From: Felis catus
Lineage: Eukaryota
Direction: 5' to 3'
Assembly (NCBI RefSeq): GCF_018350175.1
Contig: NC_058380.1
Location: 56,420,001 to 56,484,000, forward strand
DNA: 64,000 bases
In this document: positions 23,496 through 36,256 of the stretch, piece by piece
Position numbering within the stretch: position 1 is the stretch's first letter
Layout of the letters: each line of letters opens with the position of its first letter
Notes under the pieces: model-generated
Told to the model about the DNA's origin: nothing
The model's database searches: none
Seen by the model: the letters and a program-made list of their open reading frames with translations, nothing else
Program-made: the position numbers and the translations under genes

Positions 23496-28980
<5,485 letters not shown>

Positions 28981-29503: not shown

Positions 29504-30198
29504 TTAGGGCCCCTGGTCCATTTTCCCTATCAGCTCCAAATTCAGGTTAGGCAGAATACCCTGGAATCTCCTCCCTTGGCGCTCAAACCACCGAGCCAGG
29601 CTGCGGTTCTGAGGATGGATGCAGACACTGCGTCGAGACAAGTGAAGCCTGGGAAAGGAAAGGTGCAAAGCCATAGTCATAGCTTGGAGATGACATTAGG
29701 GTCCAGGGGTTAGGGCAAAGGCTAAATGAAAACCTGAGTCAGCATCAGAATTAGCAACTGGGGCTGGGGCTGGGGCTGGGGTTGGGGTCAGCATCAGGTT
29801 GGGACTGAGGTCAGAGTCAGGGGTCAATATGAGGGGCAGGGTCAGAGCTCACACGAAGGCCTGGAGGTGACAGTCCCCATCAGCTTCCTGCAGTTCCACC
29901 CGGATGACTTTCCTTAGTAGCTTGTTCGAGAGTGGCTGGCGGTAGAGCTGAGTACAGCAGGTAATGCTGGGTGACAGTAGCAGTGCTAGGGGACAATGGG
30001 GCCATGTGTTCAGAGGACTCCTGACCCCAAACCCTTCTATCAGACAGCTGGAGGATGGACTTCCTGGGTCCCTTTCCCTCCACCCCATTTACCCAAATCC
30101 CTGGCCTTCTAGACCCCCAAGCACTCACCTGCTCCAGGGTCTGGGGTCAGCAGCAGCAGTAGCAGAAGGAGGCTGCTTGTGGGTGAGGGCCCCTTCAT
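29504..30198 (-). CDS. CCL27: C-C motif chemokine 27 (CTACK/ILC), 115 aa, 3 exons
   Basis: Exons 30129-30198, 29853-29985 and 29504-29648 (348 nt). MKGPSPTSSLLLLLLLLTPDPGAALLLSPSITCCTQLYRQPLSNKLLRKVIRVELQEADGDCHLQAFVLHLSRRSVCIHPQNRSLARWFERQG...MDQGP*, with four chemokine cysteines. Confidence 0.97.
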
Positions 30199-31037
30199 GC
30201 TGCTCAGCTTGGATACTTCTCTCTTCTCCTCCTCCCCTACCTTTTATCTGGGTGCCTTTTACCTGGGGCACCAGGTGAGTCAGAGGCAGGTGAAGATGTA
30301 TTGCTCATCCTGTGACATTCCTGAGCCCTAATTGCCACAGACCCCCTCCTCTTCTAGGGCTGCCATTTCCCATGGCTTCTAAGCCCTGGACAGAGAAGCT
30401 GGAGAGAGGGGTACTGCATGATGTGAAGGCTGATGACACAGTGGCCAAGTAAGGGCAGCTAAGGATCCACGGTGGTATCCAATGATGGACATTCATACTC
30501 ATATACCCATAGTCACATTCATAGTCACACCTCAATCACTCAGTCAACCTCACATGGTCAGACAACCAAGGACAGAATCATATTGCCCCAGTTGGCCTCA
30601 AAGTCCCACTCCCACACAGTTGTGTCTTCACAATCATCCAGTCACACAATCATATGAACACACACAAATTCTGATAGGGGAATTTTGGGTGGAGTGGGAG
30701 CAGAGGGCAGGCCAGCACCAACTTGCCTTCATCTTCCCCTCTATATACTTCCTGTCCTAGCCTGCCTGTCTTATCAGGAGAAATTGATGAGAATGGGTCC
30801 CTAAAGCAAGTCCTTCTGGCTGAGGATGAGTCTTGGCTGGAACAGTTACATCCAGAGTGAGAAGCCGGGACAAGGCCCTTTTTGGTACTGGGGTACCTTG
30901 GGGATGATGAAGTAGGGGCTGCTTTTCCCAGGGAGATGAGACAGGGAGGAAGGATGGGGTGGAAAGATGAAAGAAGGTAAAGTTCTTTGGTGCCAGGTTG
31001 CTGATGTCGAACAGAGAAAAGACCCAAAAAATCTTAC

Positions 31038-31138
31038 CTTCCTGTTTGTGCCTAGTCCTATCCCAGAAATGCCAGCCTCTTGCCAGGAGGGGTGCCTGGG
31101 GTTTCCAGAATCAGTCTCTGGTTTATGCAGACATCAGA
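31038..31138 (-). pseudogene. Decayed homologue of the rodent CCL27 'PESKY' alternative exon
   Basis: ATG at 31134 and a strong phase-1 donor GAAG|GTAAGA at 31038/31037. Pieces translate to MS..INQRLILETPG and RGWHFWDRTRHKQE, resembling mouse PESKY MSPTSQRLSLEAPS...RSWHPWNKTKQKQE (recalled). The ATG frame has TAA at codon 4. Confidence 0.7.
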
Positions 31139-33041
31139 CTCAAGAGCTCAATGAGCTTTCTTTTGTTCTATTCAAATTCCAGCCAGGCCCTGCTCCCCAG
31201 CCAGGTCCTGTAATACCACCCCTGCCCCAACCCAGGCCCCAACCCTTACTCTCTGCATCCCATCCTCTTGCTAAAGCCCCAACCTCTCATCTCCTCCCTG
31301 TCTCTTCTCTCCTATCCTATAACCAGCCCTAATTCCCTTTTTCCCCTCACCCTCTAAAACAAAAGTTCTCCTCCTCTTCTTGTGCTTTCAAGGAAGCTGG
31401 GAACTGCCTATGGTGGGGGCAAGTTGCTAAGTTTAGTGCCCCTGGCACCTTGAAGAAATTCCCACTCCTGGTCTGGGGATTTCAACCCTCAAGTCTTGCT
31501 CTGTATTCGAAACATAAACTGAGTCATAACCCAGTAATCCAGACTTTATCTGGTTGTTGCAGGGGTGCCTTGTGCAGCCTTCTGCTGTGTGGCCAGCTAT
31601 CCTCTATGGGGCAGGCCTTCTCTTGGGATAGGGACCCAAACCTATCCTGGGCATCTTTCTGCTGCAGGGTTGCTGAAACAATCAGGAGGGACCATCAGTT
31701 CCAAGAGTAGGAACCAGTCCCCCTCCCATGCTGAACAATTCAAGTTTCTCCTCTCTTCTGTCCAGGGTGAGGCTTGAAGGTCTTTCCCTGGAGTTTGTCT
31801 TGTGAATACTCAGGAATTCCGATAGTGTCCTGGTGAGGTGTAGGCCCTGGGCTTGACAGGGTACTCCACTTTTGACAGGGTTCTTGATGTAGACATTGTG
31901 AGGAAATGGCTCAAGAGTCTGGGTCTGTTCTTGAAGGTGGCCACAACCCAGAGGTCACTCATTTTGAACTGATAGTACCAGAGGCCTTAGGGTCTCTCTC
32001 CCACCCTCCAGTCCGGACATGTACCCCAGAGCTCAGGTGCAGCTCTTGAGGTGCTATTGTTTTATTACAGATCTCCATCAGCTGGCTGTCTGCCATATAC
32101 TTTGTGGTCTTTTCTGGACCAATCGGTCCAGACACCTGGGAAGGCAAGAAATGAGTTCTTTTGGGTATGTACCCATTTCTCCCCTTTGGCTTCTCCAAAG
32201 ATAGGGCCAAGTGGTTTCCCCAGCCACAAGCTGCTGTGGCAGGGGCAGCCCCAGGCTAAAAGTTAGCTTTGCCCTCATCCATACACTGGGCTGTCTCTTT
32301 AACTTAATCTTCTGGTACCTTTTCTGATGCTGGAACCAGTCCCTAACAGAAGCAGGCCCACCAGGAGGCCCTCACCCTCAGCACTTTAAGACCTAGAGGG
32401 TCTCAGGTTAACTAGATGACAAAATAGAAAGGGGTGGCAGGGAGCAGTGGCCTTTGAGTTCTAGGGACACAGCAAGAACTGTTAGGTAAGCTGATGCCAA
32501 GTATCTTTAAACCTGGGAAAAGACTGGAGGAGCCAAAAGTTGGGTTATTAACTGTAAGAAAGATCTCCAACAGTCCCAAGTAATTCCCCTGTGGCAGGTT
32601 GAGGGAGTCAGCCTCTAAGAATCTTCCCCTCCCCTCCCTGCCTACTTCCTACAACCCTGGGCTTAAAATATTTTAGATTCACTCTCAGACAAAGAAGATG
32701 CTTCAGACACCTGGCAAAGTCCTTTCTAGGAGGGAAGTGGAACACATCTATGTGGGGATACGGGTGGGAGAAAAGACCAGGACAGGACTATTTAGTTCTC
32801 TGCATATAGGCTACTTACAGGGAGGGGTGGGGAGATTAGGTGGCGGAGGGCAGTTAAAGACAGTAATGGGAGGCCTGATACTGATGAGGGATCCTTAGGA
32901 ATAACGGGGGCCTGGATATGGAAGGGCACCCAATCAGGGAGGGAGGCCCTGTCAGTAACGAGAAGCAGGCGTGTAGAGGGGCTCCCAGACCGAATGGCGG
33001 CAGCGGCGGCAGAGTCAGGAGGGCAGCATGGTGACTTCGGT

Positions 33042-33378
33042 TTAAATCTTTAATGCACCGGCTGGCTGGGCAGTGGCGGCGGGGGTGCGGCGAGGGAGGC
33101 CGCGACCCGAGCGCTGGGGGGCAGGGCCCAGTCCGCTTGACAGACAGCTCATCAGGCCTCGCAGAGGCTCCAACTTCTGCTCCCGCGGATGCGCCGAGCT
33201 GCAGGGCAACCCGACACTGGCATAAGGCAAGGAGGGGACTCCCAGATTACCCCCATCCGTCCCCCGAGGCTGAGCCTCGTATGCCCCGGGCGGGTCCGCG
33301 GCGTCGCAGCCCCCTCACCTCCTGTCCCTCCGCCACATGCGCAGCCAGGGGAAAAAGTAGAAGCAACCCCAGTAGATC
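33042..33378 (-). CDS. Conserved uncharacterised microprotein gene upstream of CCL27 (probable orthologue of human LOC730098, about 87 aa); last two coding exons visible
   Basis: Exon 33319-33378 (cag|G...AG|gtgagg, 60 nt, IYWGCFYFFPWLRMWRRDR) joins in phase to exon 33042-33198 (cag|C, SSAHPREQKLEPLRGLMSCLSSGLGPAPQRSGRGLPRRTPAATAQPAGALKI*). The start exon is not visible and probably lies in the N gap 33566-33697. Confidence 0.8.
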
Positions 33379-33565
33379 CTGCGGAGAGAAGGCAGAGCCG
33401 GCCGGGGGGGCGGGGCTGACCCCACAGACTCTGCGGTTTAGACGCCTCGCCCCTCTCTAGGAAGGCTCCGCCCCGCCCTTTAGAGGCGGTTCCCTTCGCA
33501 GCCCACGCCCCTTGAGGGGCCCCACGCCTCCCGCCCGCAGAGAACTCGCGCCCTCCCCCACCCCG

Positions 33566-33697
33566 NNNNNNNNNNNNNNNNNNNNNNNNNNNNNNNNNNN
33601 NNNNNNNNNNNNNNNNNNNNNNNNNNNNNNNNNNNNNNNNNNNNNNNNNNNNNNNNNNNNNNNNNNNNNNNNNNNNNNNNNNNNNNNNNNNNNNNNN
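33566..33697. other. Assembly gap (others at 39443-39580, 39831-39989, 60917-61080, 61120-61252, 63317-63445)
   Basis: Runs of N. Confidence 1.
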
Positions 33698-34937
33698 CAA
33701 GGATTCTCCAACCCCATGTCCCCCTCTCTGTCATTCTCAGGACCCGTCTGACCTGTTCTCAGGTAATCTGAGGCAGGTGCCCCCCGGAAGCCTCAATTGC
33801 CACAACGGGATAGGGTGGGGGATTGAAAAATTGGGAGGCACCAGACGTTAAGAAATTAGGAGGTCGGTCACCTCGGGGATCTGGGACATTTAGGGGATCA
33901 GGGAGAAAGGCTTTGCGGTCATGGACCTGGGATATTCGGGGCCCTGGGTGAGGATTTCGGGGGTGGGGATCACCTGGAGGGGGGCTGAGGGGTCGGCGCA
34001 GCCTAAACTCCCGCCCTCCTTGGCTCCACCCCGGAAACAGACCGTTACCGTTACGTCATAGGGACTCCGTCGCGCACCAGGGGTGGGGTTTGCCTATTAC
34101 CCGGAAGGAGCGAAGTCAGGGCTTTCCTTCAACGGAGGCGGAGTCAAAGTGACACCCTGGAGGTGGAGCCAGGGTCTATCTATCCTAAGGGGGCGGAGTC
34201 GGGCCTTATTACTAGGATGTGGAGCACAGGACATTCTTTTACAGGGATAGAGTCAGATTTTGTAGCTCTCTCCCTGGAGACCAGGGAGCAAGAAAAGAGC
34301 TTTGGGACGCAATCCAGTACTGTTTTCCCAATCCTCTCTCCTCTTTCTTCGGCTTCTGCCCTGCCACTTGTCTTTCTTGTCTGCCTTATTCCACTTGTAT
34401 GACCCGGGTCTGAGGAGGAATAGGTCTCCAGAGAGGGCCCAGCCTAGATGGAGCAGGCTGCGGGAGTACTTGTGTGAGTGGCCTCGTTAATGGTCAGAAG
34501 GTTACAACCCTTCCTCTCTGAGCTGAAAGCTATCTTCCTGTGATTTTTGTTCCTACTGTCATTCAATTCAGCAAATTTATCATGCTATGAATGGGTATAC
34601 AGCAGTAGAGAATACAGATTATTACAGTACACAGCACACTGGATGGAGGCAACAGAGGGTGCTGCAGTAGAGTCCAGAAAGAGCAATTAACCCATTATGA
34701 AACGTTGGACATAGCTGCCCCAGTTGGTCTGGGGATGGAGGAAGGGAGCCTTCTAGCTGGACTGTAAGGGAGAGAGTGACCAGAAATAAGTGAAGTGAAA
34801 GTTCCCTCAGGCTGAAGTGTGGAGAATGGAGACAACTACTCTCTCCCCTCATCCCACCTTCTTTCTCCCTGTCTCATACCTCTTTTCCTATGCTTGGGCC
34901 ACAAGATGGCAGACAGATCCGCGGGTACTAGTTGGGC

Positions 34938-36256
34938 TTTATTGGAAACATTACAGTCTGGGTGTGGAGGAGAAGCTGTGCTCCTGCCACACTCATCCCT
35001 GCTTACACTTAGACTCACATTCACACTGCAGGCCCTGTCCCGGCAGGGTCAGGTCTGGTGCAGAGTTGCCAGAAGGCTGGTCCTCTCTTCTGGTCCTTTG
35101 TTCCTCAGAGCCTCGATGATTCACGGGGCTCCCTCTGAGACTGTCATGGGTTAATGACTGTGGTACTTGTTCTAGGGGAAAGAGAGGCAGGGTCACGGGT
35201 GTCTTGGGCAGGGGCTCTGAGGGAGAAGGCAGGGCTAAGGGAGAGCTGGGCTTGCCTTTGCAGAGTTCTGCGATTTCCAGATGATGTCCATCGAGGGCTG
35301 TTCTGGGGTGTACAGAGCTGGTGACCTCTCAGCACAGTGAACCTGGAATCAGAAGGAATGGAACAGCCCTGAAACCCAGCTTCCTGGCAGGCCCTGGTGT
35401 GAGGGGCAGAAACTGAGGACCATATCTGGGAACCTGTTTCAGGGGCTTCCTTGTGGGGAGGAGCTTGGCAAGGAGAAGGGGAGTAAGATGGTGAGTGGAG
35501 GCCCAGGTGATGGAGCAAGTGATTGGGAGAAGTAGAGACTGGTTACTCTTCACCCCCCACCCACAAGACAACAGCACCTTGTAGCCATTGTTGAGGAGGA
35601 GGTAGCAGCAAAAAGGCACCAAAAATGTTCCTGGGAATTGGTGTTGGTTCACCAAGAGAGTCCTCAGAGTTGTTGGCATCATTCAGAGCTGGGTGGGTGG
35701 GTGGGTGTAGGGGTTAGGGCTTGAGGGGCTTTAAGGTGGGAAGACCATAGTCCTGACTAGAATTCAGGATGCCTGTGTCTAGGGTCATAGCTTTAATGTT
35801 CCTCTCTTTCCCATCCATGTGCACTGTCCTTTTCTTCCTCTGGAAACCTAGGCTAAAGGAGATAGAGCCTCTAGAGAGAAGGGCAGCCAGAGTACTGACC
35901 CATGTAGGAATACTGGGGACACAGGCACATCTATATCACACAGGTGCACACATGGGACACAGGAACACCCACACTACACACGCCCATGTATAGATTGCAC
36001 AGGAATATACACAATGCACAGGTAAACCCACAGTACACAAGGACACATAATCACAAGGACACACCCATTTGGCACATGTACACTGTCAGGTTCACAGACA
36101 CACTTGGACCTGGGTGTTGACCTGAACTCACAGTCTCTTTCACAGATTCCCTGATCCCTCCTCTGCCCCTCATCTTACCATTTGCTTACTTACTTTCCAG
36201 GGGAGACCAAGAAATCAGTATGCTGAGAAGAGGAGAGGTGCTGTGCGGGGGGCCAT
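34938..36256 (-). pseudogene. Unprocessed CCL19-like pseudogene (tandem duplicate)
   Basis: Four exons collinear with CCL19: about 36198-36256, 35565-35688, 35256-35342 and 35151-35171, with AATAAA at 34938-34943. Exon 1 frameshifts give TGA at codon 14, the exon 1 donor GT is changed to GA, the CC motif is deleted, and exon 3 is frameshifted. Confidence 0.9.

Follow-up and report, generated by a model that had tools for sequence, protein, structure and literature searches.

A small annotated gene beside CCL27 in the cat encodes a microprotein with an aromatic core conserved across amniotes

The window analysed here is the whole stretch of 64,000 nucleotides of cat DNA, with positions counted from its first letter. 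It presents, in this order, an IL11RA-like exon encoding a WSxWS motif (27344-27571, plus strand), CCL27 (30198-29504, minus strand), a small gene for a microprotein and a CCL19-like exon (57732-57580, minus strand); the IL11RA and CCL19 names are our presumptive assignments from the translations. Protein-to-DNA matching resolves CCL27 into a signal-peptide exon (30129-30198), an exon 2 that starts in phase 1 (29853-29985) and the coding part of exon 3 (29504-29648), all on the minus strand. Its intron 2 contains short degenerate repeats of the CCCCAG/CTGA type (29740-29830, minus strand).

All features of the microprotein gene lie on the minus strand. The earlier note on this DNA had proposed two of its exons, and their consensus splice sites, phase and peptides are borne out by our reading of that strand. 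Exon 2 (33319-33378) is a coding cassette of 60 nt, in phase 2 at both ends by sequence and orthologue comparison, with a CAG acceptor and an AG/GTGAGG donor. Its peptide, in the reading frame from 33377, is IYWGCFYFFPWLRMWRRDR; it contains the core IYWGCFYFFPWLR (33339-33377), 13 residues (17-29 of the protein) whose columns are invariant among amniotes in alignments A3 and A4. A GT-AG intron of 120 nt in phase 2 (33199-33318) leads to exon 3, whose coding part of 157 nt (33042-33198) follows a CAG acceptor, reads SAHPREQ...GALKI and then TAA, and is predicted to form a short helix (residues 48-56) and a disordered tail. The pyrimidine share upstream of the acceptor is 82% at exon 2 and 53% at exon 3. 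The ATTAAA that had been noticed within the last codons is found at 33054-33049 as a candidate poly(A) signal; the AATAAA at 32066-32061, which TGTA closely precedes, is at least as good a candidate, and would give a 3' UTR of about 1 kb. The final residues A-L-K-I (33045-33056) are far better conserved than the tail that precedes them, and this end is absent in marsupials; its conservation could reflect the ATTAAA that overlaps it or a binding motif at the C-terminus.

Two further features of exon 2 were observed. An upstream AG (33379-33416) would lengthen it by 37 nt. Bear and Hipposideros models carry 13 extra in-frame residues at the equivalent position, and since the extension shifts the frame in the cat, this longer isoform is not conserved. 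The exon-2 frame from 33378, DLLGLLLLFPLAAHVAEG, resembles a signal peptide; it differs from the murine-type sequence at 4/20 positions, and is probably a by-product of the aromatic codons.

The start exon had been placed in the stretch of Ns at 33566-33697, and comparison with orthologues supports that location: the exon would supply 15 codons and 2 nt and end in a phase-2 donor, so that 47+60+157 nt give 88 codons. Sixteen residues precede the Ile at position 17 in 10/10 orthologues checked. The horse model (P0018) is collinear with 33805-33698, where the N stretch begins on its 5' side, and locates both the ATG, roughly 40 nt into the Ns, and the end of the 47 coding nucleotides within that stretch. 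A search of the genome with the aardvark orthologue matched the two visible exons and found no start exon elsewhere. A further 5' exon, probably untranslated and with an uncertain 5' end, is placed at 33974-34081 because models of marmot and marmoset have N-terminal extensions that align to 34081-33974 and end there at a GT donor (CAG/GTGATC). The microprotein exons sit within a CpG island, and a second CpG-rich stretch (33801-34200; observed/expected 0.65-0.71) would hold a probable TATA-less promoter and the first 5' exon. Within it, positions 34040-34075 show clustered TGACGTAA, GGTAAC repeats and TTCCGG; we take TGACGTAA to be CRE-like and TTCCGG to be ETS-like.

The leopard RefSeq protein XP_019279623.1 (P0051, 87 aa), common to seven Feliformia in UniRef, has exactly 16 residues before the Ile and is identical to the window at 19/19 exon-2 and 51/51 exon-3 residues. 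This identity at 70/70 visible residues places the exon structure far beyond chance and agrees with the spliced protein of 87 aa that the note had predicted. The small gene is almost certainly real and protein-coding. It is not the hidden gene it had been called: RefSeq annotates the felid protein and the mouse has curated NP_ records, and a gene already in the databases is no discovery. It is annotated in many mammals, as uncharacterised and without a study of its own. The proposed orthology to a human uncharacterised protein stands, with orthologue records that include human hCG2040265 (P0006), the human record returned, which is an exon-2-skipped form; LOC730098 is presumably the name of this human orthologue. 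The mouse orthologue is filed as "C-C motif chemokine 27 isoform 3" (NP_001157516.1 and NP_001157517.1, curated; UniProt A2AMS8), and the window matches it at 63/70 residues, against 64/91 for CCL27 compared with rat. All ten candidate proteins from a search with the exon-3 peptide matched, all of them mammalian where named, and a search with an alignment of four full-length forms matched 48/1190 candidates. Named orthologues come from Afrotheria, Xenarthra, Laurasiatheria, Euarchontoglires and marsupials, with the frame retained over three exons from marsupials to placentals. Contigs of Logan/ENA yield a contiguous spliced protein of 87 aa for 4/15 listed cluster members.

The description as a microprotein of no assigned function is sustained by the orthologue records, which carry no function, family or domain. 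Pfam returned 0 families for both window peptides, and for eight database proteins nothing beyond sub-threshold chance matches and the IL8 domain of a rat fusion (P0039, residues 62-120 only). P0051 lacks the Pfam match (PF00048) of a CC chemokine, a family defined by an IL8 domain with an adjacent Cys pair and a signal peptide. Alignment A3 gave 0 matches in the PDB sequence search at E 10, the predicted model 0 matches in Foldseek at E 0.001, and the ESM Atlas no usable match to the whole protein or to residues 5-40; Rfam had no match over 31000-35000 at E 0.1. The genome search for paralogues gave one extra match (E 0.38), rejected as it carries a stop. Among candidate relatives, one accession turned out to be CCDC188, and supposed likenesses to FFAT, LIR and caveolin-binding motifs, stathmin N-termini and BLCAP were dropped for want of Pfam support.

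The protein is conserved unevenly along its length. In 28 distinct orthologues of 87 aa the mean column identity is 0.967 for residues 1-16, 0.997 for 17-29, 0.98 for 30-36, 0.981 for 37-57, 0.835 for 58-83 and 0.973 for 84-87. The inference of purifying selection fares well by this measure and by the synonymous excess in exon 2. Against a murine-type sequence (assigned as murine by its exon 3) there are at least 4 synonymous changes at 10.0 sites and 1 non-synonymous change at 47.0 sites (Fisher p 0.002), and against Rhinolophus 3 synonymous and 1 non-synonymous (p 0.015). These counts are lower bounds over 19 codons, being minimum base changes recovered from database proteins that are erroneous predictions from the two other frames of exon 2, and both comparisons share the changes of the cat lineage. 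It is synonymous sites that carry the changes, and the other two frames both diverge; these sequence comparisons point to selection on the peptide, not on the bases. A metagenome scan for orthologous DNA gave 6 loci from 288 candidates; the four that were translated were AT-rich chance matches with in-frame stops.

The core reaches beyond mammals. It is exact in 95/98 core-bearing proteins, a figure that is no count of independent events because the set holds redundant isoforms and relatives, and in 15/16 sauropsid genera. The exceptions are two mouse duplicate-gene records (P0093 and P0094, both W27R), where the change suggests decay of extra copies, and an owl model whose 5' end differs. A profile search without filters yielded 31 proteins at E 0.001, of which two (P0114, P0119) look like chance; the named non-mammals are turtles, tuatara, crocodile, squamates and birds. 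No homologue from outside amniotes, whether amphibian, fish or invertebrate, appears among the 48 alignment matches (46-153 aa), the 31 profile matches of all lengths or the two matches from 8000 scored candidates of 267-2000 aa, which argues only weakly for absence. In six sauropsid genera (Pantherophis, Rhineura, Pogona, Pelodiscus, Liasis and Phrynocephalus) 67-293 variable residues precede the core and 10-11 follow it, although many sauropsid records resemble projected models with unreliable flanks. Since 58 residues follow the core in placentals, it is independent of position in the chain. Three turtle models (P0046, P0111, P0112) open with residues similar to those of the mammalian start exon, one of them with a long insert between these residues and the core, which suggests that mammals lost internal exon sequence.

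Database proteins also reveal how the exons are combined. Among the 129 that we classified, 58 contain all three exons and nine lack exon 2 with the frame preserved (human, gorilla, orangutan, marmoset twice, loris, beaver, bat and polar bear). Seventeen join exons 1-2 to a chemokine domain without exon 3; 16 are from muroid rodents, and the other, a wallaby model, has a signal peptide inside the chain. Five have other 3' ends, 23 show exon 2 only, seven exon 3 only, and ten fit none of these classes. By sequence, then, exon 2 is a frame-neutral cassette that contains the whole core. The earlier reading had overlooked this skippable exon, the reach of the core across amniotes and the first exons shared with the CCL27 isoform PESKY.

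The rodent fusion records are presumably the published PESKY. In these fusions a short bridging exon converts phase 2 to phase 1. A homologue of it persists in the window (31038-31095, minus strand; tblastn 43% over 23 aa, E 0.001) with an intact donor. Among 26 AG positions listed upstream of the 31038 donor, ten restore the frame and nine of these run into a stop, which leaves a weak 41-nt AAG option; no AG stands at the equivalent of the rat short acceptor, and the closest CAG acceptor would break the frame. A direct join of microprotein exon 2 to CCL27 exon 2 is likewise out of frame in the window, and such out-of-frame joins are on record in pika and in one contig. One deer model joins CCL27 exon 3 and three marsupial models continue into the signal peptide of CCL27, which extends read-through beyond rodents. 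Among the records found, in-frame fusions of the PESKY type come from muroid rodents alone. Read-through is thus common and its frame not conserved, whereas the stand-alone protein is. Rodent PESKY is probably a read-through hybrid of the microprotein gene and CCL27, and we consider it highly probable that PESKY is secondary to the microprotein gene. A published 67-aa brain form was considered as the exon-skipped microprotein (16+51 = 67 aa) and set aside, because a 67-aa C-terminal fragment of CCL27 (P0085) fits the description "truncated CCL27" better.

The net charge of the protein runs from -3 in residues 1-16 through 0 in the core to +4 in residues 29-44 and +5 in the tail. The core presents seven aromatics plus fixed Gly, Cys and Pro. 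Its Wimley-White interface sum over residues 17-31 is -10.9 kcal/mol. The best 19-residue Kyte-Doolittle mean is 0.46, and no 19-residue window qualifies as the transmembrane helix of a single-pass microprotein. Invariant Cys21, flanked by aromatics and placed before a basic run, lies in a context that fits S-acylation; the membrane association or palmitoylation suggested in the note is plausible on sequence grounds. AlphaFold2 predicts a helix over residues 2-37 (pLDDT 81-89 over 11-30), a short helix at 48-56 and a tail below 50, in a model that is weak overall (mean pLDDT 63, pTM 0.29, only 27 sequences). A homodimer prediction for residues 1-58 scored 0.00 and is uninformative either way.

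We propose tentatively, giving the mechanism as a whole a little less than an even chance, that the core is a docking element at the membrane. The locus would be an independent single-copy gene between CCL27 and CCL19 with its own CpG-island promoter, and its product a non-secreted microprotein of 87 aa. The working part would be residues 13-36 or so, where an acidic run, the aromatic core with its Cys and Pro, and a basic run may fold as a kinked helix that partitions into the membrane surface, possibly with S-acylation on Cys21. This helix would dock, lock-and-key, on a conserved protein partner, making the microprotein a small regulatory subunit or inhibitor, with the rest of the chain a tolerant disordered carrier. 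Skipping of the 60-nt cassette would remove the core without a frameshift and so act as an off switch, and rodent PESKY would be a read-through chimera restricted to its lineage, with its first two coding exons taken from the microprotein gene.

The alternative that survives best, although we think it unlikely, is that the aromatic, Cys and basic module only tethers the protein, by palmitoylation and interfacial partitioning, while the function resides elsewhere in the chain. The strong interfacial score and the aromatic-flanked Cys before a basic run are what such a tether would show, and conservation in placentals also reaches 98% over residues 37-57. But membrane anchors usually tolerate hydrophobic swaps, and here none of the 13 core positions varies across amniotes; moreover, the six sauropsid genera have almost nothing after the core, and their N-terminal part is unrelated and variable. 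A core that is unchanged position by position and mobile in the chain leads us to favour a specific docking element over a generic anchor, an argument from the usual patterns of variation in anchors and in binding motifs.

The exact retention of every residue in a short aromatic peptide could also mean that the core acts in cis as a nascent peptide, slowing or stalling its own ribosome and thereby controlling how stable its mRNA or read-through CCL27 transcripts are, or how they are translated. The stop 10-11 residues past the core in the six sauropsid genera and the recorded out-of-frame joins to CCL27 exon 2 (pika and one contig) are consistent with this. Against it, mammals retain 58 conserved residues after the core and exon 3 is itself conserved, and CCL27 has its own signal-peptide exon and a promoter region 3 kb away. 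We regard stalling as quite improbable.

The mouse RefSeq view makes these exons alternative 5' exons of CCL27, kept for nuclear PESKY, with the 87-aa form as a by-product. In agreement with it, rodent CCL27 isoforms share the first 35 residues and the bridging-exon homologue persists in the window. According to reviews, in the parts of their text available, PESKY is a nuclear form of CCL27 that is not secreted, differs in its first exon and occurs in eye, brain and testis (10.1101/526145, PMC5237636, PMC7590012; likewise PMC12491177, PMC3346806 and PMC3527566). Three observations speak against this view and make it very improbable. The direct join is out of frame in the window and the rodent-type acceptors are absent or blocked by stops, with the weak 41-nt AAG alone open; every placental group conserves exon 3; and database records of the 87-aa form exist for pangolin, Hipposideros and Rhinolophus sinicus, lineages in which CCL27 is reported as inactivated in the available part of 10.1101/526145.

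A nuclear role would follow if F-P-W-L-R in the core mimicked the Hox hexapeptide and plugged the PBX pocket, as a natural equivalent of peptides that block HOX/PBX. The hexapeptide core is given as Y/FPWM in the accessible text of PMC6450960, and HOX/PBX-blocking peptides are described in that of PMC5458287 as using this core plus arginines. The microprotein likewise has F-P-W and, after it, one hydrophobic and one basic residue, with a basic run after FPWL and a W27 that is invariant bar the two mouse duplicates. It differs in having L for M (3/4 of Y/FPWM), no linked homeodomain (no Pfam match) and a longer invariant context, eight other invariant residues being left unexplained. A rough estimate from composition expects the five-residue pattern about 7.5 times per proteome by chance, and a decoy of this kind has only a faint chance of being right. 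A genome search for PBX gave 14 matches, with no intronless copy among them. Conservation at the nucleotide level, as a splicing or regulatory element with no protein made, would suit exons in a CpG island beside a promoter and is scarcely credible given the synonymous changes while other frames diverge, the lack of an Rfam match and a frame kept over three exons from marsupials to placentals.

The docking proposal can be carried further, to a reading that we hold doubtful: an amniote-wide microprotein whose invariant helix is a splice-switchable inhibitor or subunit, in its boldest form a PBX-pocket decoy, and to which the effects ascribed to PESKY and Ccl27a largely belong. If true, 25 years of "nuclear CCL27/PESKY" work, the mouse Ccl27a effects and the expression in brain and testis would largely be those of the microprotein. 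Gene-level "Ccl27a" signals in brain, eye and testis may count its transcript, because the mouse annotation merges both. A PESKY that is a two-gene chimera of rodents also makes it doubtful to transfer PESKY biology to other mammals. Knockouts of chemokine exons would leave the microprotein intact, and the mouse duplicates could mask its loss. The mouse has three Ccl27 copies, and its total knockout was aimed at chemokine exon II according to the available text of PMC9157018, a design that would spare the microprotein. The published Ccl27a wild-type genotyping primer has its best window match at 33014-32995 (minus strand; 15/20, against a background of 14/20), directly past the stop codon; it hints weakly that the microprotein gene falls within the KOMP Ccl27a deletion, and the match is too weak to use.

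The searchable full-text literature, which leaves subscription journals outside, gave no paper on the function or conservation of the microprotein, although early PESKY papers may mention the isoform. Full-text searches with the core peptide, the mouse UniProt identifier and hCG2040265 returned 0 papers. Detection by Ribo-seq or mass spectrometry was not encountered in the literature and supplements searched, including 12 of the 19 files of PMC13577902 and 7 of the 9 of PMC6886504, none with a match. In the parts of the searchable literature available, LOC730098 appears in lists only, as invariant in ExAC (10.1101/739706) and in a carcinoma signature (PMC8529178). We found no account in that literature of the invariant core, the selection at the protein level, the exon-2 cassette or a PESKY that is a rodent chimera. 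Thirteen residues unchanged across amniotes, without a family, fold or paper, are a sharp and cheap target for a new interaction, and the natural exon-skipped form and the W27R duplicates of the mouse serve as ready-made controls.

Comparison with known systems places the gene as follows. The felid "uncharacterized protein LOC109252013" (XP_019279623.1) and its placental and marsupial orthologues are the same protein, with the same length and exon arithmetic, in records that have no function, family or domain attached. Mouse CCL27 isoform 3 is filed under Ccl27a, yet it has no residue in common with the chemokine and no IL8 domain. The PESKY-type isoforms of muroid rodents draw their first 35 residues from the same two exons as the microprotein; they run through the bridging exon into the chemokine, whereas the microprotein ends in its own conserved exon 3. 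Small membrane-associated regulatory microproteins form a general class in vertebrates. Our protein is unlike them in having no transmembrane helix and no sequence or fold match, and we infer the likeness in action; it resembles them in its length below 100 aa, its short conserved hydrophobic core and its disordered remainder.
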